From positions 168,101 through 232,100 of the forward strand of contig JAGBEG010000012.1 in the NCBI GenBank assembly GCA_017937095.1: a DNA stretch of 64,000 bases, given 5' to 3'. Below, piece after piece: positions 1 to 18,499 of this stretch. The position numbers were made by a program, and so were the translations under genes. The first letter of the stretch is position 1. Each line of letters opens with the position of its first letter. Source of the DNA: Roseburia sp. (GTDB taxonomy: Bacteria > Bacillota > Clostridia > Lachnospirales > Lachnospiraceae). A model generated the notes under the pieces. That model was not told the origin of the DNA and ran no database searches. It worked only from the letters and a program-made list of their open reading frames with translations.

Positions 1-922
1 CATTCTCATCCGTTACCATGTAAGTGATCTCATACTCGCCCGCCGCCTCAAGGTCAACTGCCGCAGAATCGCACACAATATTCGCCGTGATATCATTCCC
101 ATTGCTGTCCGCCGCCGTCACGCCGTCAAGGTAATCAATCTCATCTGCCTCAGTACCGACTGTCACGGTAATGTCTTCGATACCGGAAAGCTCCGGCGCA
201 TCCCCAACCACAATATGTACACTTACCTCCGTGCTGTTGCCGGATGCATCCGTTACGGTAAGCGTATTGTCATATTCGCCCGTCTCCGGGTAGATTACAT
301 ATGTATTGCTGCAGATGACATCGCCGATTACAAATTCCGCCTCCGGCTCTGCTGTCTCGGTGGATTCTGTGGAGTCAACAGCGCTTTCCGTCCCTTCCTC
401 TGTTTCGGTCGCATCTACTGCTTCGGTATTCCCAGCTTCCTCCGTTGACTCCTCCGCTATCTCGGTATTTTCCAGCGATTCTGTTCCCTCGGCAGTCTCT
501 GCACCATCCACGGTTTCCGGCTCTGAAAATGTCACTTCCACTTCTCCGCCAAGCTCTGTGATTCCTGTAATGACATCCTTTGCATAGAGCGGCTCACCCG
601 CTGCCGCAACGATCTGATCTGCAACCGTTACCTCCGGTGCAGTCGTATCTACAACAACGACATCAAAGCCTGCCGTCTGATCCTTATACGTCACAGTCGC
701 GCTGTACGTACCCACCTTTGTCATGTCAACTGCCGAAAAGTCAACCGTTGCTTCTGCGGCTACATCCGCATCCGCTACATAAGTTGCCACCGCCGTGTCC
801 AGCTCACTGCCAAGTTCTGCCTCGACCTGATTCGCGGTAAGCTCCAATTCCTTTGCTCCGCAGGCACTTACTCCAAGTGTTGCCATTACTGCTAATGTTG
901 CTAATACTTCTCTCTTTTTCAT
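1..922 (-). CDS. Lipoprotein with bacterial Ig-like domains and an acidic linker (3' end outside window)
   Basis: Hand translation MKKREVLATLAVMATLGVSACGAKE...; lipobox VSAC; VDMTKVGTYSATVTY and DTTAPEV Ig-like motifs; RBS upstream; not in the ORF track because the stop is outside the window. Confidence 0.75.
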   Translation of the reverse strand, partial: MKKREVLATLAVMATLGVSACGAKELELTANQVEAELGSELDTAVATYVADADVAAEATVDFSAVDMTKVGTYSATVTYKDQTAGFDVVVVDTTAPEVTVADQIVAAAGEPLYAKDVITGITELGGEVEVTFSEPETVDGAETAEGTESLENTEIAEESTEEAGNTEAVDATETEEGTESAVDSTESTETAEPEAEFVIGDVICSNTYVIYPETGEYDNTLTVTDASGNSTEVSVHIVVGDAPELSGIEDITVTVGTEADEIDYLDGVTAADSNGNDITANIVCDSAAVDLEAAGEYEITYMVTDEN

Positions 923-3105: not shown

Positions 3106-3588
3106 CTATCTGCTCACCGGTATCTGTACATCACACACGACCTTCCGGTTCCACGCATCCGTCGCCGCCACCCGGATTTCGTAAATTCCCGGACGGTCAA
3201 AGCTGACTTCCGCCGCATCCGCATTATAACAGCCCGCCAGCTCCGCGCCGGACCGCCTTTTTACACTAAGCACGTCAAGTGCAAGCTCTGTGCCGTCCCA
3301 TGCCCTCGCACTAATATAATCTGTAAGCTTATTCGTGCCAGTCTGCATCGTGCCGGCGCCCGTATAGCTTATGACAGGTGGCAGACAGTCACTTTCTACC
3401 GCATATGTCTCATAATCCGTATATGTCTCATAATCCGTATCCCAGGTCGTAAGATGTGCTCCGACAATCTGTATAATGCCCTTGTTTCCTTCCGCATCCG
3501 TCACATTTACGAATAAAAAGGCTATCAGAATTCCCAGGACTAGCGCATCCACAAGAAATTTCCCGTATTCATTAATAATCTTTTCCAT
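3106..3588 (-). CDS. Tad-locus minor pilin-like protein with C-terminal Ig-like domain
   Basis: MEKIINEYG then TM helix; PGIYEIRVAATD Ig-like motif. Confidence 0.55.
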   Translation of the reverse strand: MEKIINEYGKFLVDALVLGILIAFLFVNVTDAEGNKGIIQIVGAHLTTWDTDYETYTDYETYAVESDCLPPVISYTGAGTMQTGTNKLTDYISARAWDGTELALDVLSVKRRSGAELAGCYNADAAEVSFDRPGIYEIRVAATDAWNRKVVCDVQIPVSR

Positions 3589-3603
3589 ACATCCTCCTGT
3601 GCA

Positions 3604-3756
3604 TTACATAACCCCGCATATACTGTCCATATAACTACGAACAATATCATTGACCACGCCTCCCGGTGCAATGTAGCTAAAATAAATATTAATTCCAAGC
3701 ACCCCTGCGATCAAAGCTAAGAATCCCACGCCAAAATGTTCTGCGATTTTTTCCAT
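3604..3756 (-). CDS. Small Flp-like pilin (50 aa, MEKIAEHFGVGFLALIAGVLGINIYF...)
   Basis: Hand-translated; RBS GGAGG; similar to the 7230-7403 peptide. Confidence 0.6.
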   Translation of the reverse strand: MEKIAEHFGVGFLALIAGVLGINIYFSYIAPGGVVNDIVRSYMDSICGVM

Positions 3757-3771
3757 ATCAGCCTCCAAAAC

Positions 3772-3879
3772 CTAAAATGATGTCACGAAGTTTAAGATCT
3801 CCATGACCATAACACATGCGGCTGCTCCGCCAAATAAGCCGAGCAGCGCATTACCAATTTCTCCGACTACGATTTTCAA
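3772..3879 (-). CDS. Small pilin-like peptide (35 aa, TTG start, MKIVVGEIGNALLGLFGGAAACVMVMEILNFVTSF)
   Basis: Hand-translated; fills the operon gap; hydrophobic; Gly at position 9 like its neighbours. Confidence 0.45.
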   Translation of the reverse strand: MKIVVGEIGNALLGLFGGAAACVMVMEILNFVTSF

Positions 3880-4066
3880 CCATCATCACCCACCAATCAT
3901 TTATCATTGCTGTCAACTGATCCCTAAATATTAGTACAAGTACAATCAGCACAACAAGAATAAGTATCAGCCCTACAATATTCCCCTGATCCGCCATTAA
4001 CACGTACGTACCCAAAAAGAGCAATGGCGCTCCGACAAAACCTGCCAATATTAAGACTATATGCAT
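3851..4066 (-). CDS. Small two-TM membrane protein; second helix resembles Flp1-like pilins
   Basis: RBS GAGGT; GNIVGLILILVVLIVLVLIFRDQL segment. Confidence 0.5.
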   Translation of the reverse strand: MHIVLILAGFVGAPLLFLGTYVLMADQGNIVGLILILVVLIVLVLIFRDQLTAMINDWWVMMVENRSRRNW

Positions 4067-4068
4067 TC

Positions 4069-4404
4069 TTACCTCGCAATCCCCCGCGTGCTCCTAGTAT
4101 CTGTGATTCCGAACACCGGCATTTTATACTCATACTTTAAAAGGACCTCTGCGGTCTGGATATCATGATCCGCATCATATGTATACCCGCTCACCGTAAG
4201 CTCATAGCCATTCGCCGATGCCTGCGCAATGCACGCATTGATCACATTTGGATTAAAGTTGCTGTTCTCAATCTCCGCGATCACATCCGCTTTATACTCC
4301 TTCGCTGCTGCTGTCTGTCCAGTCACGGAAATCATCGCAGCACAGCCTAACAAATTAAGGACAATTACAATCAGAATGGAAAACGCTTCTACAATATGCT
4401 TCAT
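4069..4404 (-). CDS. TadE-like pseudopilin
   Basis: N-terminal TM helix; C-terminal EVLLKYEYKMPVFG strand typical of TadE-like proteins; start moved to ATG 4404 (RBS GGAGGTG). Confidence 0.6.
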   Translation of the reverse strand: MKHIVEAFSILIVIVLNLLGCAAMISVTGQTAAAKEYKADVIAEIENSNFNPNVINACIAQASANGYELTVSGYTYDADHDIQTAEVLLKYEYKMPVFGITDTRSTRGIAR

Positions 4405-4405
4405 A

Positions 4406-5965
4406 TTAAACACCTCCCATATTTCCGAGCATGCTCATCATATAGACCATACCGAGCGTAAGATCGATGAGCAGCTTGACTGTCGCAGCAAGCACCGGAT
4501 AAGAAAAAATGGTCTTCATACGGAAAGCGATGCTTGCATCCCTCTTTTCGTCCGCCATGACCTGCATCTCATTTACCCGGTGCAGCATATTCGATATCTG
4601 TACGTCTGCGTCCCCAGTACCTGCTTCTGCGATAGAGTGCAGCATCTTCATGATGCTCTGCGTCTCCGGAGCGTCAAAATCCCTGCAGAAATCCGTATAT
4701 GCTGCCAGGGAATCCGGCGCCACCGCCAACCGATCATTAAGCTGCAGCAATTCCTCACGCAATAGTACCGGAGCACTCTCAATTGATTTCGCAATCGATA
4801 CCTGTACATTGTTATGCTGCAGGAGAAGTGCCATCTGAATCATCCATTGCGGCAATGTTGCGTATAATTCTTCGTTCACATCCTTCTTTGCCAGGTTATA
4901 TCCGACCTTATGCTGCACGAGCATAAATGCCCCAATAACCAGGCAGGCGACTGCAAGCCATTTCTTATAAAAAAGATAGACAGGTATGGCAGCAATCAGA
5001 AACGGTGCTGCATAAAGCAGACTCTTGCGCTTTTCCGCCGCCTCATCATAATGTTTGATGTTATCATAGCTGTCCAATATCATTTTCTCACTATGTAGTC
5101 CATCTACCTTTAGCCAGTCCGACGTTAGACTGCGAAAACTCTTTGCCAATACAAAGAGCATGCATAACAAGAAGAAAAATGACGACAGTTGAATGATCGG
5201 CATCTGCATGATCACCACGTCCGTTGCCGCCGCCGGAAACAATATGCTCATGCCATCCATGACATACAGCGCTACCGCACAGAGGATGGTTGCTACCACA
5301 ATGGATATGATATTATCCGTATGCCCCTGCTTCTTCTGCGCCTGCAGCTTATAGCCCCGCCTCTTCCACAACTCAATGTCCTCCAGAAGAATCAGGATTG
5401 CCTTGTCAATGTTTCCGCCGTACTGTTCACCGCTGATGAGCGTATCATGCACTGTGCGCAGCTTCGTGTTGTCATATAACTGTTCTATCATCTCAAGACC
5501 CTCCCGGACAAATCCCTGCTCTGTCCGGCTTACGCCTGCTTCCAGATAAGCGATTGCCCCGTCGATTGCATCCTGCATCTGTCCTGGTTCGAATATTTCC
5601 CTCGTCTCTTTCAACGCCGAAAGAATCTTTCCGTCCTTCTGGTACGCATAGAGCATCTGTTCCATATACTCGCATACGTCCGAAAAGCGCATCTGCTCGT
5701 ACATTTTTTTGTACCCGTCCAATACCAATACCGGAAGCATGATAAATACTGCAGCCATTGCAATTACAAGGTACAACGGGGCAAGTTTGAAAATGATTCC
5801 GATTACCCCAATGCCAAGGAGTGAACATATAATCAGGAGTACATGCGATTTCCAGCTAAAGTTGTAGCCATACATATGTACTTCCTTCTCAAGATTCCTT
5901 GGATTAAGCAGGCTTAAATTCTTCTGAAGCCTTCCCTGTCCGCTTCTTTTATTTATCCTTTTCAT
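4406..5965 (-). CDS. Fused TadB/TadC-like (T2SS F-family) inner-membrane platform
   Basis: Two T2SSF-like halves with several TM helices, directly after cpaF; start probably 5965 (ORF track 6007). Confidence 0.7.
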   Translation of the reverse strand: MKRINKRSGQGRLQKNLSLLNPRNLEKEVHMYGYNFSWKSHVLLIICSLLGIGVIGIIFKLAPLYLVIAMAAVFIMLPVLVLDGYKKMYEQMRFSDVCEYMEQMLYAYQKDGKILSALKETREIFEPGQMQDAIDGAIAYLEAGVSRTEQGFVREGLEMIEQLYDNTKLRTVHDTLISGEQYGGNIDKAILILLEDIELWKRRGYKLQAQKKQGHTDNIISIVVATILCAVALYVMDGMSILFPAAATDVVIMQMPIIQLSSFFFLLCMLFVLAKSFRSLTSDWLKVDGLHSEKMILDSYDNIKHYDEAAEKRKSLLYAAPFLIAAIPVYLFYKKWLAVACLVIGAFMLVQHKVGYNLAKKDVNEELYATLPQWMIQMALLLQHNNVQVSIAKSIESAPVLLREELLQLNDRLAVAPDSLAAYTDFCRDFDAPETQSIMKMLHSIAEAGTGDADVQISNMLHRVNEMQVMADEKRDASIAFRMKTIFSYPVLAATVKLLIDLTLGMVYMMSMLGNMGGV

Positions 5966-5970
5966 CTGTG

Positions 5971-7029
5971 TTATTTGCCCTCCTTGATGTATTTCTCCAG
6001 ATCGCACTGATATGGATCATCTATTCCTGCCAGCTTCATTTTCTTATTGATATCCGGCGGCAGCTCCTTCGATACCAGTTCTCCGTCATCCACAACCATG
6101 TAGATTCGGTTCTCCTGTCCCTCTCTACTGTAAAAGCAAAGCTGATCGATATACCGTCTGGTCTTCCCGCCCGGCTCATCCACACGCCGGATCAGGATGC
6201 CGATATTCACATATCGGTAGATGCGATTTTCCATGCGTGTCGCATCGTTGACATCATTCATCATGTTCTGGATGCGGTCAGGCAGCTTCCTCAGATCGTC
6301 CAGATGGATCGTCGTAAAACCATTCACGCCGGTGCTCCACTGCTCCAATAGAGACGTCACTTCGACCGACCTTGCCTCCGAGAGCATCAGCCATTTCGGA
6401 TTCTGCCGGAGACATGTCTTGATTGCATCTGTGTAAGTAAATCCATCCCCTACCCGAAGTTCGACCGCATCTGCTTCCGGATTGATATCCGGATAATGGA
6501 TTTCAAAGGAATCTTCAATGGTGATGACCCTCTCCTCTCTCGGAATAAATTGCATATAAAACTTTGCCAGCTCGGTCTTCCCAGCGCCCGGTTCCCCGGC
6601 AAAAACAAAATTCATTTTTGCCAGCACACAGTTGATTAGTAAATTTAAGACTTCCCGATGGCAATATCTGTCGTCTAACATCTGCCGGATCGTATTTCTG
6701 ATAAGCGGCGGTGATTTCCGGATACAAATACTGATCCCCGTTCCTGTCACGGATTCATGTATAATGCTGATGCGCAGTTCTCTTGTATCCGCCTCCAAAG
6801 TTTTATTTGCATTATTGAACTGCTTATTAACGCAGTTTGCGATATTATGCGTAAATGCGATAAGGAAATTTGTTGTGATTTCCTCATTCGCCCTGTATCT
6901 TCCCTTTTTCAAATCCGTGATCCACAGTTTACGACCGTTATAGTCGATGTCCGTCACATCTGGATTTTCAATATATTTCCAGAAAACGCCGAACTGCTCT
7001 GCAGTCGGTTCAAATGTTATCTCACTCAT
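5971..7029 (-). CDS. cpaF: CpaF/TadA (VirB11-like) pilus assembly ATPase
   Basis: Walker A GEPGAGKT, ITIEDSFE, LRQNPKWLMLSEAR, GFTTIH motifs. Confidence 0.9.
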   Translation of the reverse strand: MSEITFEPTAEQFGVFWKYIENPDVTDIDYNGRKLWITDLKKGRYRANEEITTNFLIAFTHNIANCVNKQFNNANKTLEADTRELRISIIHESVTGTGISICIRKSPPLIRNTIRQMLDDRYCHREVLNLLINCVLAKMNFVFAGEPGAGKTELAKFYMQFIPREERVITIEDSFEIHYPDINPEADAVELRVGDGFTYTDAIKTCLRQNPKWLMLSEARSVEVTSLLEQWSTGVNGFTTIHLDDLRKLPDRIQNMMNDVNDATRMENRIYRYVNIGILIRRVDEPGGKTRRYIDQLCFYSREGQENRIYMVVDDGELVSKELPPDINKKMKLAGIDDPYQCDLEKYIKEGK

Positions 7030-7143
7030 AGTTCCTCTTTCTTTTTCCTCTTCTGCCGGTTTTCCCCTGTTGTTTTTCCTTGCTTTTCCTACTGATTTCT
7101 GTGTTTACCATACTTTTTACTTGTTTCACGCACCGCAAACGCC

Positions 7144-7229
7144 CAGCCCATGCGGCGGACAGGCTCTGCCTGTCTGGCCGGATGGACTGCATTGGCGTCT
7201 GCATGGCGTCTGCCTAGCAGACGCCATGC
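7144..7229. other. Two stable hairpins between the major pilin and cpaF
   Basis: Perfect 13-bp stem GCATGGCGTCTGC-CTA-GCAGACGCCATGC (7201-7229) and an imperfect stem at 7144-7189. Confidence 0.6.
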
Positions 7230-7403
7230 TTACGGTGTGCTGCCAATTGCGGACATATCACCGAAAAATCCGGTCAGCGCATCCTTGAATGCGAGGTCAA
7301 CATAACCTCCCGCCGAAAGCGCTGAAAGAATGATCGCGCCGAGCGCCAGTAAAACAACGATTGTAAGAATTGAATCGCCATAATGTTCCATTACCTTCTT
7401 CAT
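7230..7403 (-). CDS. Probable major Flp-like pilin (57 aa, MKKVMEHYGDSILTIVVLLALGAIIL...)
   Basis: First gene of the operon; RBS GGAGGTG before ATG 7403; TM helix; followed by a hairpin. Confidence 0.65.
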   Translation of the reverse strand: MKKVMEHYGDSILTIVVLLALGAIILSALSAGGYVDLAFKDALTGFFGDMSAIGSTP

Positions 7404-7439
7404 TGGACTCACCTCCTTTCCCTAATCACTGTCTCATTT

Positions 7440-7515
7440 ATCATACAGATAAAGCTTTTTTATTTCATCTGCCTAAAAGAAAAGTTTTCATTTCTTTTGT
7501 TTCTTATAGGAAACG
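7440..7515 (-). promoter_or_regulatory. Conserved transfer-operon promoter, copy A (Tad operon)
   Basis: -10 TATGAT (7440-7445) and box AAGAAAAGTTTT starting 7477; near-identical to 15967-16047. Confidence 0.7.
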
Positions 7516-7874
7516 TTTTCATTCAATGCACTTGCCATATGTTCTGACATTTTGAGAACAAATTCCACAGTCTGCGGGTTCGCCCCCTGCATGATTTCCT
7601 CGAATTTTTCTCCGTTTGTCAACATTTTAGGAACTTCTGTCAATTCCGTTGGCAATAAATCTGTTACCTCCATCCCAAATGCCGTCGCAATTTTAAGGAG
7701 TGCTCTCAGTCCAATCTCACATTGCTCTGCCTCCACCTTCGATATATGGCTTACTGACAAGTTGGAAATCTCTGCAAGACGTGCCATAGACAAGCCACGC
7801 CTTTGCCGTTCTCTGCGTATATTCTGACTGACCTCCTGCAGCATACCTTTTACCTCTTCATCTGATATTTGCAT
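7488..7874 (-). CDS. XRE-family HTH regulator
   Basis: IRRERQRRGLSMARLAEISNLSVSHISKVE; paralog of 33450-33890. Confidence 0.85.
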   Translation of the reverse strand: MQISDEEVKGMLQEVSQNIRRERQRRGLSMARLAEISNLSVSHISKVEAEQCEIGLRALLKIATAFGMEVTDLLPTELTEVPKMLTNGEKFEEIMQGANPQTVEFVLKMSEHMASALNENVSYKKQKK

Positions 7875-10761: not shown

Positions 10762-13187
10762 AATATTGCTGTCTCTGCTTTCTTCTTTGCGGCTTTCTCG
10801 TGCATATTTGTGTTGTAGACATCGTAGACAGGATTATCCTTCGGAATTGTATTATCAAACGGTAAGATTGTCCCGCCAAAACGTATCAGCCCCGTCCCCG
10901 GCGCTGCATTTATCGTGTACTTGATCTGCGCTTCACTAAGCCCTTCCAGTGCTTTTCCAAGTGCAGCCGCATCCGGCGCCGCCTGCCGAAGAAGCATTGT
11001 ATATTCACTGTTGGATATCAAGGTAGAAGTGATTGGATCCTTTAATACGGTAACGACATTTTGCGTAATCCCAGTGCAAAGTCCTCCGAGCTTTCTTACC
11101 TGCGCCCAAAGCGATATAAAATAGTTTCTTGAAAACGGCTTCCCTATCAGAACATGGAACTCATCTACATATAACCATGTCGCTCTCCCCAGATAAAAAT
11201 TTCGGATAATCCGCATCCTGATATTTTCAAGCATAATAAGCATCGCAATCCCTTCAAGCTCTTCCCCCATGTCACGCATTCCATATACAAGGACACGATT
11301 ATCTACGTCAATGTTGGTCTGATGATTGAAGATATTTAGAGAACCATCTACAAAAATCTCCATAATCAACGCGATTCGTTTCGCTTCCGGTTCCTTCTGT
11401 CTGTTCAGTTCTTCGATAAAATTTGTCATGATGGGCTGTTCTCTCTCATCAACAGGCAGCATCGCAATTTTCTTATACATATCCCTGGTGCACCGGTCAA
11501 TAATAGATTTGTATTCCGGAGGCAACGCACCTTCCATTGCCTGTTCACAAATGCCGAGCATAAAACTGCATTTTTCTCTTACTTGTCCGCTTTTATCATC
11601 AAAATCAAGTGTCTCAAGATCCACCTCAAGCGGATTCATATACTGATTTGCATAGCTGGCAAGATTAATGACAGCTCCGCCGTATGCTTCCGCCACATCA
11701 AAATACTCCAGCGTCGGATCTACAAATATGATGTCATCCTCTGTATTTAAGAATACGCTTCCCGCCTCCATCTTACATCCGGTAAAACTCTTTCCCGCTC
11801 CCGGCACAGCAAAGACAAATCCATTCCCGTTCATCAGCTTCTTACGGTTTGCCCAGATCGGTTCCCTGGACACCTTATTGATTCCATAATAAAATGGCTG
11901 ATCCATCATCTGCATCTCCACCACATTAAACGGCACAAATGACGCCGCCGCGCTGGTAAAGAGAGCACGCATCATATCCACATATCTGCCGCCAATCGGC
12001 AATGCTGTCGCAAGCGCCTCCCGCTGTCTCATATAATACGGGAAAAGCCTGCATGTCGCCTTTTCCACTACCTGCGTCACTGCCGTTAATTCCTCATTCA
12101 GTTTTTCCTCATCGCCCGCAATGATTCCGACCGTAACGCCTACCCAGAACATCTTCTGGTCATTGTCACGCAGTTCGTCAAGCATATTCTCGAGTTCTTT
12201 CTTCTCCCGGCGCACCTTATACGAAATATCACTCGTGAATGCACCGTTCTTATTGCGCTTTTGCTGTTGCTTTGTGATCTTGTTCTCGACTCCCATCAGC
12301 TTATCTTCCAGTGTCTTGATTGCAACGTCCTGTGGAATTGGTTCGTAATCGATCGTATAAATGGATGGAATCGGAAGTTCCGTCAATTCTTTTAAGAAGG
12401 TATCCCGCATTGAGGTCGGGTATGATTCCGGATCCAGATAAAGCATTTTGCACACTTTATCATCCATGGAAAACTGATCGATCTCAGAATCGAAATCCAT
12501 TCTTGTATCTGCCAGAATGTCCTTTACACTGTGTAAGGCTGCAATCTCTTTTTCAATATTTATATCAGCTTCTTCCTGTCCCATATGATAGAAGTTCCAT
12601 AATACCTGAAGACGTTCGCTTCCATCCATTGGAATAAGTGCGGAAGAAAGCCCTACAAAGCTATTGACAAAGCTTTCCTCAAGCGAGGACAGATGCGCCC
12701 GCGCTGCCTCATAATCTTTACGCTTTACCGTAATCGTCAGAAACTTTTCCTGACGAATTCCCTGCCGACCTTCCGTAATCTTGCTCTCCATGATATCATT
12801 GTAAGCTTCTCTCAGCCAATCATAATCATCTGAGCGATATCGGTAAAATATCTTTTCCTTGATTTCCTTCATATTTCGGTTTCCATTGAATATGGTAAGC
12901 TTTACTGAAATATCAAAAGCATTCATATTTTTGCACCAATCGTAAAAGAAGGATAGCTGCTCATCATAGGTTTTCGTGGTATAGTTGACATCCAACAGAC
13001 GATAGGTTTTTGACCACTTTTCTTTCCCTACCTGGAAAATTCCGTTAGGTGCAATTCTTGCAAATTCAATCGTATCGCGCGTATTTTTAGGATGTTCTGC
13101 CATAAGCTTGTCCGGCTGTTTTAATTCCATGAATATCTTCTGTTTCGCTAAAGCGGGCGTTGCTTTTGGTATCCTGCCCTTTTTCAT
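10758..13187 (-). CDS. virB4: VirB4-like conjugation ATPase
   Basis: Walker A AVPGAGKS, YVDEFH, RKLGGLCTGITQN motifs. Confidence 0.9.
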   Translation of the reverse strand: MKKGRIPKATPALAKQKIFMELKQPDKLMAEHPKNTRDTIEFARIAPNGIFQVGKEKWSKTYRLLDVNYTTKTYDEQLSFFYDWCKNMNAFDISVKLTIFNGNRNMKEIKEKIFYRYRSDDYDWLREAYNDIMESKITEGRQGIRQEKFLTITVKRKDYEAARAHLSSLEESFVNSFVGLSSALIPMDGSERLQVLWNFYHMGQEEADINIEKEIAALHSVKDILADTRMDFDSEIDQFSMDDKVCKMLYLDPESYPTSMRDTFLKELTELPIPSIYTIDYEPIPQDVAIKTLEDKLMGVENKITKQQQKRNKNGAFTSDISYKVRREKKELENMLDELRDNDQKMFWVGVTVGIIAGDEEKLNEELTAVTQVVEKATCRLFPYYMRQREALATALPIGGRYVDMMRALFTSAAASFVPFNVVEMQMMDQPFYYGINKVSREPIWANRKKLMNGNGFVFAVPGAGKSFTGCKMEAGSVFLNTEDDIIFVDPTLEYFDVAEAYGGAVINLASYANQYMNPLEVDLETLDFDDKSGQVREKCSFMLGICEQAMEGALPPEYKSIIDRCTRDMYKKIAMLPVDEREQPIMTNFIEELNRQKEPEAKRIALIMEIFVDGSLNIFNHQTNIDVDNRVLVYGMRDMGEELEGIAMLIMLENIRMRIIRNFYLGRATWLYVDEFHVLIGKPFSRNYFISLWAQVRKLGGLCTGITQNVVTVLKDPITSTLISNSEYTMLLRQAAPDAAALGKALEGLSEAQIKYTINAAPGTGLIRFGGTILPFDNTIPKDNPVYDVYNTNMHEKAAKKKAETAIL

Positions 13188-14377
13188 TCCTCTGCCACCT
13201 CCTTCTTAAAAAATAGTTCCCTCATTTCTTCAATATCATAGGGCATTTCGTTTTGTTCATTGAAGCTTTCCTCAGGCTCAACCATTACCGCCACTTCTTC
13301 TGAAGCCAGAATGCTGTGATACCGCTTCTGTCTGCCCCCCATCAATCCAAATACCGCCAACGTTTTCTTCAATTCCACTACAGTACTTAACGTGGCAAGC
13401 GGCATAACCTCTGCAAGCAATCCCAACCGCCTGCTCTCTTCCATAAACACTGCGGTTATTTTTTCCATTTCCTCTTTATCCGCTGCAGCAAGCAAGAAAT
13501 ACACGCCGCAGCAAAGAAAGTTTTGTCCATCCTTCACCGCCTGCTCTTCCTGCATTAAAATGCTATGCAGTACCGGATTATTTCTCTTCAGCCGCGGCAT
13601 CACACTCTCAAGACCGACATATTCTGACCGGATAAAATCAGCCACTGCCTGATCGCTGACCGGTATTACAGAGACATATGCCGCTTTACTTCCCGCCTGA
13701 TCCAGCAATGTTTTTATAGCTCCGCATGCCGGTTTCGCCAGGAATCGGCGTACTGCAACTATTCTATAAATCCCTGCCTGTGTTTCTATCTCCCCATTAC
13801 CAGTCTCCATTCCGCTATATAGCGCAGCGTTCTTCCAAAGATCTGGCTGCAAGATGCAATTTTCCGGTTCGATTTTCTCCGAAAGAAACTTTCCTAAAAA
13901 GTCCCGATAATATGCTAACCTTCGTTCTGCATTCCACCCCTTCAACGCATACTCCTGCTCCAATGCTTCGAACCAGGCAACTGCCTCATTCATGCTTTTT
14001 CCTGCATAGTGCACAACCAGATAACTTTCGTTTTCCATGAAAAGGAAATCATACTCTATCTCTCTTCGTCTGAATTTTTTGCAAAATGCTCCTATATCCT
14101 TACACTCCTTGCAATCCGACAGCGGATATAACTTCGAGCAGCCGTTCTCCCCCATAACTACTCCGCTTTCAGATATCTCCGTATTGCCGATGGTCCTCTT
14201 CAGGAACGCCGGTACCCGGTATACCGGCTCGTGCTTATTTCTGGTTCGCCGAAACCGATCGCGTCTTGGCGTTCTTCTTTTTTTCTTTCCTTCTTTTGTC
14301 TCTTTTCGTCCGTTGCGTCTTAGCTGTTGAGCCATCCTTCTGTATGTCCTTTCTTTCTCCCGGCAACTTAGCCTCAT
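13184..14377 (-). CDS. Hypothetical protein resembling the N-terminal half of VirB4
   Basis: Several colinear segments align by eye with 10758-13187; no Walker motifs; true start probably near 14335. Confidence 0.55.
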   Translation of the reverse strand: MRLSCREKERTYRRMAQQLRRNGRKETKEGKKKRRTPRRDRFRRTRNKHEPVYRVPAFLKRTIGNTEISESGVVMGENGCSKLYPLSDCKECKDIGAFCKKFRRREIEYDFLFMENESYLVVHYAGKSMNEAVAWFEALEQEYALKGWNAERRLAYYRDFLGKFLSEKIEPENCILQPDLWKNAALYSGMETGNGEIETQAGIYRIVAVRRFLAKPACGAIKTLLDQAGSKAAYVSVIPVSDQAVADFIRSEYVGLESVMPRLKRNNPVLHSILMQEEQAVKDGQNFLCCGVYFLLAAADKEEMEKITAVFMEESRRLGLLAEVMPLATLSTVVELKKTLAVFGLMGGRQKRYHSILASEEVAVMVEPEESFNEQNEMPYDIEEMRELFFKKEVAEE

Positions 14378-16047: not shown

Positions 16048-18068
16048 AGCATATATTCCGCCAAAAGTTCTACCGTCTCCAGATCCATCTGACAATCAAA
16101 AGTGCCAAGTATCTCCTCTGTTGTCATTCTCATTTTTTCTGCCAACTGCAGAATGCACTTCATCTGAGGCTCCTTAAATCCAGCTTTCTTTAATTTTGCG
16201 AAGGTAATTGCCTGCTCCGGCGTCTTTAAATCTCTGATGTTCACATGAAGCTTTTCCTGCTCCTGTCTCTCGAGTTCTTCCTTTCGCAGTTGTTCCTCAA
16301 GTTCCTCTCTGGTTTTATTCAGCAGCTCCTCATCCAAAAACATGATGCTCTCCGGATCTTCGTCAAGCTTCTCGACCAATTTACCGAGTTCCTCGAAAGT
16401 CATATGAAAAATATGGCGCTCCGGCTTTTCCGGCATATCTTCCCCAAGCAGTTCCGCTATCTTCGCCTCGTCCTTATAACGAGTCATCTCTTTCTTATCC
16501 ATAAGTTCCAGATGCGTCAGTTCTGCCTCATCTACAAATCCTGTTCTGGCACGCATTTTCCCGACTCTCCTTCTCCTTAAACGCTCGATTCTTGCATCAA
16601 ACAGTTCTCCCTTCGCTGCTTCACACATCTGATTCCAGCAAGGATGCTTTCTTGTTTCAATCTTTTGATCCAATATCGGATCAAATCCCCGGATAAAAAT
16701 GATGCATTTTTTCCCTTCGAGTTTCCGCAGTTCATCGGGAAACATCAGTTCTCTTCCGACCACATCATAATTTCTGGACGAGCTGCCTTGTTTTCCGAGT
16801 GTCTCACCATTGCTTCGCTTGTCGATGGTCGCCTTCCCCATCAATTCACTCAGTTCTTTTTGCGTATCAGGACCATTACCACCCAGATATACCCATGTAT
16901 CACAATTCGCCAGCAATTTCTGATGTGCACCATCCTTGTAACGCGTCTTGATCTGGCTCATGTCCTGAATGATAATAATAGAGCTTATATTTCTGCTTCG
17001 CATAGTAGACAGCAGTGACAAAAAGTTCTCCGGAAGTGCAATATTGTCAAATTCATCCAGCATAAATGTCACAGATACAGGCAGTGAACCTCCATGTACA
17101 AAGTCCGCTTCATAATAAAATTGCTGGAACATGATGTTATACATCATTCCAATCAGGAAATTGTAGGTCGTATCATTATCTGGAATCACGCAGTAGATTG
17201 CTGTCTTTCTCGTCCCGATCAACGGAATATCAATCTCATCATCATCTAAAATAGAAAGTATTGCCTCCGTCTCAACCGGCGCCAGACGTGCATTCATGGA
17301 AATAATGATCGAACGCACCGTATCTGCTGCGCCGCGCATGACTTTGTTATAATTAAGCACTGCCTTATGATTCGGACTTCTCTTCTCGAGATCTTTCATA
17401 ATGACATCAAGCGTGGAATCCAGCTTTGCACCTGTCTTAGGATCTTCCTTGAATTCTGCAAATTTCAGAAGTTCCATGACTGCACGCACATTATGTACCT
17501 TCGGAACTGCCGGATCATGAATCGCCGCAAGAATCCGCTCCCTGTCATCCTCTCCGGATGGCTTCTTATACTCCCAGATATGCTCTGGCACTCCCTCAAG
17601 CCAGACATAGTAGAAAAGAGCCTGCAAGCCTATTCCTTCTGCCTTTTCCCAGAATGGGTCGTTTGTCGTAGATCCTTCCGGTGTCGTGTTTTTAATCAGA
17701 TTGGTAATCAGCTTTAAGACATCTACCTCACTGCGCACGTATCGGAACGGATTAAAGTGGGAGGATTTTACCATCTGTTCTTCATCCAGAAGATTTAGGA
17801 CCTTGATGTCATACCCATTTTGCTTTAGGAATCCGGAAGTATCACGATACAATTCACCTTTTGGATCCGTGATAATATAAGAACCCGTCATCTGCATCAA
17901 CTGCGGTTTTACAAATCGGTACGTCTTTCCGGCACCACTTCCGCCGATAACCAGAATGTTGTTATTGAGATCTGTGTGTCTCGAATTCATAGACATCTGT
18001 ATGTTTTGAGATAATATGCGATTTCTTGTATTCACAAGATATGCATTTCTCATTGCTCTCGCTGTCAT
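16044..18068 (-). CDS. virD4: VirD4/TraG coupling protein, cytoplasmic ATPase part
   Basis: GGSGAGKT, TDPKGEL, DPFWE, FMLDEF, IIIQDMSQ motifs; no N-terminal TM. Confidence 0.9.
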   Translation of the reverse strand: MTARAMRNAYLVNTRNRILSQNIQMSMNSRHTDLNNNILVIGGSGAGKTYRFVKPQLMQMTGSYIITDPKGELYRDTSGFLKQNGYDIKVLNLLDEEQMVKSSHFNPFRYVRSEVDVLKLITNLIKNTTPEGSTTNDPFWEKAEGIGLQALFYYVWLEGVPEHIWEYKKPSGEDDRERILAAIHDPAVPKVHNVRAVMELLKFAEFKEDPKTGAKLDSTLDVIMKDLEKRSPNHKAVLNYNKVMRGAADTVRSIIISMNARLAPVETEAILSILDDDEIDIPLIGTRKTAIYCVIPDNDTTYNFLIGMMYNIMFQQFYYEADFVHGGSLPVSVTFMLDEFDNIALPENFLSLLSTMRSRNISSIIIIQDMSQIKTRYKDGAHQKLLANCDTWVYLGGNGPDTQKELSELMGKATIDKRSNGETLGKQGSSSRNYDVVGRELMFPDELRKLEGKKCIIFIRGFDPILDQKIETRKHPCWNQMCEAAKGELFDARIERLRRRRVGKMRARTGFVDEAELTHLELMDKKEMTRYKDEAKIAELLGEDMPEKPERHIFHMTFEELGKLVEKLDEDPESIMFLDEELLNKTREELEEQLRKEELERQEQEKLHVNIRDLKTPEQAITFAKLKKAGFKEPQMKCILQLAEKMRMTTEEILGTFDCQMDLETVELLAEYML

Positions 18069-18499
18069 ACCACTTTACTCCTCCGTTTCCAGGACCAGAT
18101 TTTCCAACGGATTCCCAACCATAGACTTCTTTTCGGAATCACAACATTTGCTGGATCTGTCGGATCATTACTTAAATCTGCCAGCTTTTTGTTCACCTTT
18201 TTTACGTCCGCATACTTTGCTGACCCCATCTCTCGTCCCGGCAGATAGTTCTTCCTGCTGGTGACATACATCAGCACCAATAACACATACGCAAACAAAA
18301 ATACCAACACTGTTTTTAACGTATAAGCATTCAGGTAATTCCGGAATGGTTCTTCCAATACCTTCCGCAACCGCTCCTGCCACTGAAAAATCGTTTCCCC
18401 ATGGTGCATTGCCGCAGCGCAATAATAGGCAGCAACAATAGTGCATATAGCACCAATCGCAATCATTACGGGAGAATATGTTCTTTTCCTTGGTCGCAC
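18065..18499 (-). CDS. Separately encoded VirD4 N-terminal membrane anchor-like protein
   Basis: Two TM helices and GREMGSAKY motif; ATGA overlap with virD4. Confidence 0.65.
   Translation of the reverse strand: MRPRKRTYSPVMIAIGAICTIVAAYYCAAAMHHGETIFQWQERLRKVLEEPFRNYLNAYTLKTVLVFLFAYVLLVLMYVTSRKNYLPGREMGSAKYADVKKVNKKLADLSNDPTDPANVVIPKRSLWLGIRWKIWSWKRRSKVV

Follow-up and report, generated by a model that had tools for sequence, protein, structure and literature searches.

The minus strand of the window, by which we mean the whole 64-kb stretch of Roseburia sp. DNA analysed here, carries at 7403-2520 a cluster of genes that we read, with a probability of about 0.55, as a module of eight genes, joined by a further gene (X), that is related to type IV filament (Tad-like) machines and would build its filament without a prepilin peptidase. 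The module encodes an ATPase of the VirB11/CpaF class, a candidate for a PilC-like platform, five small bitopic proteins (slots A to E) and a sixth anchored protein (slot F). Slots A to E start directly at a shared motif in front of a membrane helix, and no A24 prepilin peptidase gene accompanies them. Gene coordinates below are in window numbering unless a contig or plasmid is named.

Four N-termini had been pointed out in an earlier note on this DNA, and all four were found on the minus strand where it had placed them, at 7403 (slot A), 3756 (slot D), 3588 (slot E) and 3879 (slot C), each followed by a membrane helix. Slot B, which starts at 4404 with MKHIVEAFS and has no Gly at position 9 (Gly9), is a fifth member that had been overlooked. 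The general pattern is M-x2-[IV]-[ILMF]-x2-[YF]-[G>S/T/A], followed by the helix; that is, Met1 precedes two polar residues, two hydrophobic residues, one or two acidic residues or His, a Tyr or Phe, a small residue that is usually Gly, and ~20 hydrophobic residues. The slot A ATG at 7403 lies 6 nucleotides after the Shine-Dalgarno sequence AAGGAGGTGA, and the alternative GTG start at 7412 falls within that same sequence. Upstream of the slot D start there is a GGAGG. The start of slot C is a TTG with two TGA stops two codons upstream, and its orthologues read MEIV[VM]GE[FL]G with an ATG start.

We examined these starts in 85 homologous loci: 80 with one genome per species, the paralogue in this genome, three more distant loci and the window itself. 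Relatives for this set were found by a search with an ATPase alignment, and starts were chosen solely by the best Shine-Dalgarno match; a heuristic that took the last start codon before the helix had been dropped because Val and Met inside the motif made its calls noisy. The Shine-Dalgarno-chosen starts yielded one motif at every gene position. The consensus for slot A was M-[EK]-x-[VI]-[MFIL]-[KE]-[HE]-Y, with Gly (58), Ser (17) or Thr (4) at position 9 among 83 sequences. Slots C/D gave M-[EKR]-x-[IV]-[ILVFM]-E-E-[FY], followed by Gly in 77 and Ala in 10 of 103, and slot E gave M-[KE]-Q-[IV]-x-[RKE]-x-[YF], followed by Gly in 34, Ser in 11 and Ala in 4 of 50. Slot B kept the same pattern through the aromatic residue and then had L, S, T or G; of its 39 sequences, just 4 had Gly9. 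An in-frame stop stands 0-3 codons ahead of the Met in many loci, and a longer leader is therefore impossible there. The statement that no Gly-ended class III leader stands before the motif is thus borne out by Met starts backed by ribosome-binding sites across the 85 loci and by near upstream stops in many of them. The NCBI pipeline calls identical starts in Roseburia yibonii, where every product is named 'hypothetical protein'.

The same starts recurred in larger collections. Among 119 relatives from a collection of 5.8 billion proteins, 98 have the motif at their very start. When 1.84 billion representative proteins were searched with a profile, 264 slot A clusters came up, and in most of the best 150 of these 264 the first profile position aligns to residue 1. 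Longer gene calls in ~20 relatives were considered as leaders and rejected, the extension being unconserved and just a translated ribosome-binding site (..KGGTGM.., ..RKEGISM..). A homologue with a real leader, which the earlier note had named as evidence that would speak against its proposal, was found neither in the 85 loci nor among the 119 relatives or the best 150 of the 264 clusters. One candidate for such a homologue, P0280 (MKKKNG/FTLIE.. fused to a slot A tail; here and below a slash marks the point of cleavage), was rejected as an assembly chimera. It is a singleton on a 541-bp metagenome scaffold (L137, ENA) with a GC shift at the junction: from base 205 to base 541 it matches locus L084 with 98% identity, and the first 204 bases are AT-rich, come from another organism and encode a canonical prepilin N-terminus.

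Since the open reading frames are very short (35-57 residues) and without family annotation, one may ask whether the resemblance arose by chance or from the choice of start codons. We regard this as extremely improbable. Conservation of the motif extends over 85 loci and 264 clusters, in company with ribosome-binding sites and upstream stops. In the six frames of the 3.9-Mb genome a strict form of it, joined to an uncharged helix, was found 10 times, and 5 of the 10 occurrences are in two loci, the module and its paralogue. The conservation data refute the chance or artefact explanation; the leaderless motif pattern is real.

The absence of a peptidase gene from the operon, which the earlier note had also reported, extends further. 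A six-frame search with the Pfam Peptidase_A24 profile detected no A24 gene in the window or on its contig (C9), and the wider search that the note had suggested, covering the element and homologous loci, found none on the window's contig or within ±10 kb of the 85 loci. Applied to the whole genome, the six-frame search yielded two genes, which lie on contig C24 next to a canonical Flp1_like gene, and the recovery of these C24 peptidase genes by the local A24 profile serves as a positive control. In the four other hosts checked, A24 genes were present and always on other contigs than the module. With A24 absent in cis and present elsewhere, a peptidase is missing from the element and available in its hosts. 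The C24 genes belong to a canonical Tad-like locus (C24:92523-100538) with a Flp1_like prepilin, a T2SSF protein, a DUF5702 protein and the two A24 peptidase genes.

The Flp of that host locus reads MRGIREFVKEEDG/VGVVELILILVV... (..EEDG/VGVVE), a textbook class III site. In the module, by comparison, the start lies 8 residues before the small residue with no leader upstream, so that the subunits do not have the class III signal peptide of a prepilin. Position +5 after Gly9 shows no conserved acidic residue; those acidic or His residues that are conserved stand at positions 6-7. Position 9 itself is S, T, L, F or M in whole conserved lineages, in which positions 7-10 read ..HFS-P.., ..HFT-P.., ..HYL-P.. 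or ..HHM-K..; the HF[ST]-P forms of the R. yibonii type, for example, occur on 75 and 41 contigs. Residue 2 is Glu, Lys, Arg or Gln in nearly all slot A, C, D and E proteins. Methionine aminopeptidase leaves Met1 in place before such a residue, and Met1 should therefore stay.

Profile comparisons (hhalign) related slot A to slot D (6.7e-10), slot C (8.5e-8) and slot E (1.5e-8 over 27 N-terminal columns). Slot B was more distant (B with E 7e-5, A with B 2e-4), and slot F was unrelated to slots A to E. From these scores slots A, C and D and the first 27 residues of slot E appear to be paralogues, with slot B a weaker case. One N-terminal helix module is thus joined to different C-terminal parts, and slots A to E therefore look like a pilin set. 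None of the five matched a Pfam or NCBIfam family. The exact 111-residue product of slot B is present in public collections. The AlphaFold model of slot E (pLDDT 89.6) has one unbroken helix at residues 2-27, a linker and a beta-sandwich at residues 72-159, for which the closest solved folds are the SraP adhesin, ColG PKD and Big_3 domains. The slot E profile also recruited lipoprotein-type proteins like that encoded downstream at 2-922, and the Ig-like domain is therefore probably common to both.

Slot A is the best conserved of the aligned small proteins, with a mean column identity of 54% compared to 35% for slot E. Since it is also the first gene and is followed by a hairpin, its sequence and position fit a highly expressed major subunit. 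The hairpin, GCATGGCGTCTGC-tag-GCAGACGCCATGC, has no T-run. The 60 nucleotides after the slot A stop have a minimum free energy of -30.1 (z -4.7), and the same 60-nucleotide stretch folds at or below -15 kcal/mol in 42 of 85 loci, with unrelated sequences. By attenuation or by stabilising the messenger RNA, the hairpin may fix how much major subunit is made relative to the machinery.

The extra gene X, whose family had not been recognised earlier, matches Flp1_like (PF16982) at 6.5e-11, above the cut-off. Only 2 of the 85 loci have such a gene; here it is placed between slots B and C, with a 29-nucleotide overlap with the slot C start. Where the host Flp has ..EEDG/VGVVE, the aligned X reads ..MADQ-GNIVG and its orthologue in locus L017 ..MAEQNIVA; both have lost Gly(-1) and Glu5 and with them the class III site. 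A recent origin of X by copying of the host flp gene was rejected, as the two are only 75% identical over 75 nucleotides.

The ATPase matches Pfam T2SSE at 4e-17, above the cut-off, and is thus a secretion ATPase of the kind found in type IV filament machines. Profile matches in the PDB were HP0525 VirB11 (1e-28), Archaeoglobus GspE (1e-27), CpaF (2e-23) and FlaI (8e-19). Among NCBIfam models VirB11 was best and a TadA-family model also matched, both below their own cut-offs; on the VirB11 equivalog TIGR02788 the ATPase scored 97.7 bits against a cut-off of 250 and so falls outside that family. The AlphaFold model of the platform candidate (pLDDT 86) is all-helical, and in our reading its helices fall into two similar halves. 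The best PDB match in the fold search, and the only one with a probability of 1.0, was chain Ca of the type IVa pilus machine model 3jc8 (E 8e-3, low TM-score), which we take to be PilC. T2SSF was likewise sub-threshold among the homologues of the candidate, seen in 8 of 35 with a best value of 9e-5. A comparison with the host TadB/C-type protein as a single sequence gave no match.

Several results weigh against a peptidase-independent Tad-like filament and have to be set beside the above. The ATPase is about as close to VirB11 as to CpaF. For the polytopic protein T2SSF is the top Pfam family at a sub-threshold E of 0.002, and with an alignment the hhalign comparison to the host TadB/C-type protein gave a P of 0.006; because of these two values and the weak fold score, it is a likely rather than a proven platform. 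The likeness to the mature Flp E-Y-G motif, to which the earlier note had appealed, is visible in the sequences, but homology to Flp was not established: none of 41 slot A members matched Flp_Fap (PF04964) or Flp1_like (PF16982) at E<=10, and a profile-profile comparison of slot A with Lachnospiraceae Flp1_like proteins (P 1e-4, probability 53%) covered the helix and tail and left out the motif. Of 115 representative slot A proteins, 107 have Gly or Ala at position 9 or 10, A24 peptidases are encoded in every host examined, and canonical Flp occurs in 59 of 61 sampled Lachnospiraceae genomes.

The last of these points favour an alternative in which residues 1-9 act as a very short class III leader, ending at Gly9 and cut in trans by the chromosomal A24 peptidases. 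Also in its favour, Gly9 predominates in slots A, C/D and E in the proportions given above, ~20 hydrophobic residues follow it, and Denise et al. report that all MSH loci are without a peptidase (PMC6668835). MSH pili thus share with the module a type IV filament locus lacking a peptidase of its own; they differ from it in that their pilins have retained canonical leaders, for which a peptidase from another locus is believed to be used, where the module has no canonical site. Against the alternative, the putative leader would be unlike known ones in its fixed length of 8/9 residues and its conserved hydrophobic and aromatic pattern in five paralogous families. In widespread conserved lineages the Gly is replaced by S, T, L, F or M, sometimes with a Pro next, and slot B is mostly without it. 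There is no conserved Glu or Asp at +5, and the sole conserved acidic residues would be removed with the leader. The host Flp site is quite different, and the locus's own Flp1_like protein X is without a cleavage site as well. Judging from these sequence features we fairly clearly favour leaderless subunits, which would stay uncut, and consider cutting in trans unlikely.

The module is a widespread Lachnospiraceae system of which this lineage of integrative conjugative element (ICE) carries a copy. We found 389 relatives among GTDB species genomes, and the related loci belong to Roseburia and other Lachnospiraceae. A paralogue of the whole module, missed in the earlier note, lies in the same genome at C3:48466-55452, with an ATPase that is 73% identical. 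Its flanks hold ATP synthase, purine-synthesis, IMP dehydrogenase and glutamine synthetase genes, with no type IV secretion system (T4SS) nearby, and on its 3' side there are genes for a 538-residue Ig-domain lipoprotein and then a 1093-residue surface protein. Because the same genome holds this chromosomal paralogue, the module is not ICE-specific. Nor had it been noticed that a VirB4 like that of the window lies upstream in only 5 of the 58 loci with enough flanking DNA. The genes upstream of the paralogous loci matched no Pfam family, the C3 gene having been searched by its first 90 residues only, and within that scope no partner resembling TadZ came up.

This distribution bears on a second alternative, in which the products build no filament. 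Instead, ATPase, polytopic protein and small proteins would together make up a complex embedded in the membrane, for energising or for translocation; it would be a Gram-positive counterpart of the VirB11 part of the conjugation channel, as which pLS20 gene 37 is annotated. VirB11 structures are the top sequence matches of the ATPase, VirB11 is its best NCBIfam family, and in the window the module lies directly downstream of T4SS genes. ATPase relatives that are 28-30% identical occur on 567 Gram-positive plasmid records, 330 of them predicted to be conjugative, and in Listeria grayi pLGUG1 and, by its gene table, pLS20 the ATPase is flanked by membrane proteins and mini-proteins of 47-57 residues (PMC8557374). 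Against such a complex, the paralogue sits among housekeeping genes, VirB4 is as rare upstream as stated above, and proteins that combine a common N-terminal module with different outer domains, one of them an adhesin-like Ig domain, are what marks a pilin set; the small proteins of the plasmid modules are, besides, not detectably homologous to those described here. We think it improbable that the proteins form only such a complex.

Genes 36-41 of the pLS20 family are listed as 'putative VirB11' and 'unknown' (PMC8557374). The corresponding set in pLGUG1 (L138, 6387-10423), all annotated as hypothetical, comprises a 132-residue anchored protein, the ATPase, two membrane proteins, a 120-residue anchored protein and two proteins of 48 and 57 residues, which start MLDxNT.. 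and have one helix. Like the module, these regions have the related ATPase, membrane proteins, an anchored protein and mini-proteins with a Met start and polar N-terminus, and have no peptidase. Unlike it, they have a platform split into two genes and a different mini-protein motif. One pLGUG1 platform half was weakly similar to the platform of the module (P 8e-5), and the pLGUG1 small proteins gave no significant match to slots A, B, D or F. A search of plasmids with the whole-module DNA found no match.

Returning to the Tad-like type IV filament that we prefer, we propose that it would work as follows. The proteins would be translated from exactly the motif Met, keep Met1, and insert with the N-terminus inside and the C-terminus outside, already in final form. 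The ATPase and platform would extract the subunits and stack them into a fibre or a short pseudopilus without a prepilin-peptidase cut, and the conserved acidic residue at position 6/7 may take the place that Glu5 has in classical pilins. In this scheme slot A would serve as the major subunit and slots B, C and D as minor ones; slot E would be a further minor subunit, which bears an Ig-like domain and would be adhesive. On the ICE the most likely role of the module would be to help donor and recipient to make contact. The Tad-like pilus of unprocessed pilins put forward in the earlier note therefore stands as regards its leaderless starts, the lack of an A24 gene on the element, the pilus-type ATPase, the platform-like protein and the shared module; the assembly of a filament and the absence of cleavage are what these features together would suggest, and the link to Flp by descent was not upheld. 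A full-text literature search turned up no description of leaderless pilins, nor of such a module in Lachnospiraceae or on ICEs.

Monoderm Tad/Flp (type IVc) pili, such as those of Bifidobacterium breve and Micrococcus luteus and that of the canonical C24 locus in this genome, resemble the module in several respects. Both have an ATPase of the CpaF/TadA-VirB11 clade, a TadB/C-like platform (in the module a candidate for one), a major subunit (in the module the candidate slot A) of ~50 residues with one hydrophobic and one short amphipathic helix, and several pseudopilin-like proteins that share the N-terminus of the major subunit; an aromatic-Gly pair just before the helix recalls the Flp E-Y-G. 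The module differs in having no leader, no Gly(-1)/Glu5 site and no TadV-type peptidase in the locus, in the lack of a Flp_Fap or Flp1_like match for slots A to E, and in a candidate platform that is one fused protein with T2SSF sub-threshold. Six residues precede the aromatic residue in the module and four in mature Flp.

The thin type IVb mating pili of conjugative elements, those of R64 and TP114 (PilS-PilV; for TP114 see PMC9045228) and of PAPI-1, offer a parallel for an ICE copy. These are diderm systems with a secretin, pilins of the R64/TP114 type have normal class III leaders, and the elements encode their own prepilin peptidase (PilU in R64). The pili of R64, TP114 and PAPI-1 share with the module type IV filament genes that lie on a conjugative element beside a T4SS and an adhesin-bearing minor subunit, for which slot E is the candidate in the module. 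Their function, mating-pair stabilisation, is the one that we propose for the module.

The layout of the locus is given in Table 1; the minus strand carries every gene from 7874 down to 2. Upstream of the module are genes for a cell-wall hydrolase, a VirB4-like ATPase, PrgI and the VirD4 coupling protein, and beyond these T4SS genes a MobA/VirD2 relaxase and a tyrosine integrase. Because of these genes the setting is a Firmicute ICE. Two further minus-strand genes in this region encode proteins that matched no Pfam family, one of 397 residues beside VirB4 (13184-14377) and one of 144 residues ahead of VirD4 (18065-18499). The immediate neighbours of the module vary: the regulator has a homologue upstream in only 6 of 58 loci, and the lipoprotein has one on the 3' side in only 7 of 61. 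Slot F, which matched no Pfam family, is kept in 54 of the 61 loci with enough downstream DNA. Between slot F and the lipoprotein gene, at 1091-2401 on the minus strand, three short open reading frames encode related hydrophobic peptides of 28-32 residues with basic ends (..LISNFKSKK, ..ALGRNNGKRK, ..QIFRDKRK), which the earlier note had listed as candidate type I toxins.

Table 1. Features of the filament-like module and its immediate neighbours, in window coordinates.
Feature	Coordinates	Strand	Description
HTH_3 regulator	7488..7874	-	Directly upstream of the module; Pfam HTH_3 2e-9
Slot A, 57 residues, candidate major subunit	7230..7403	-	MKKVMEHYG, membrane helix, short amphipathic C-terminal helix
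Hairpin, 13-bp stem	7201..7229	-	Directly after the slot A stop codon; read from the sequence
Secretion ATPase, VirB11/CpaF/FlaI class, 352 residues	5971..7029	-	Pfam T2SSE
Polytopic membrane protein, ~519 residues from the ATG at 5965	4406..5965	-	Candidate fused TadB/TadC or PilC-type platform
Slot B, 111 residues	4069..4404	-	MKHIVEAFS, membrane helix, ~85-residue outer domain
X, 71 residues, Flp1_like	3851..4066	-	Extra N-terminal membrane helix; Pfam PF16982
Slot C, 35-residue mini-protein	3772..3879	-	(TTG)KIVVGEIG and membrane helix
Slot D, 50-residue mini-protein	3604..3756	-	MEKIAEHFG and membrane helix, end ..ICG
Slot E, 160 residues, candidate adhesive/tip subunit	3106..3588	-	MEKIINEYG N-terminal module fused to an Ig/PKD-like beta-sandwich
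Slot F, 190 residues	2520..3092	-	N-terminal anchor (MKN and helix) without the motif; last gene of the module
Surface lipoprotein with Ig-like domains	2..922	-	Gene cut by the window edge; Pfam Bact_surface_Ig-like 1e-12 and Big_3; lipobox visible

A bolder view, which we put forward tentatively, is that the module represents a distinct peptidase-independent class of type IV filaments whose subunits are made 'mature', that the ICE copy is a Gram-positive mating pilus, and that the 'VirB11' regions of the pLS20 type are distant versions of it. The removal of a class III leader by an A24 peptidase counts as a defining step for all type IV filaments, that is, pili, the pseudopili of type II secretion, competence pili and archaella. 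If our reading is true, this step would be dispensable in a large family of abundant gut Lachnospiraceae, and the subunits would point to the N-terminal features that are really needed for extraction and stacking. The module would also be self-contained, so that a mobile element can move it between hosts. Its ICE copy is a testable candidate for the means by which conjugative elements of gut Gram-positive bacteria bring about cell contact, and for plasmids like pLS20 it invites a fresh look at the unexplained genes that surround 'VirB11'.

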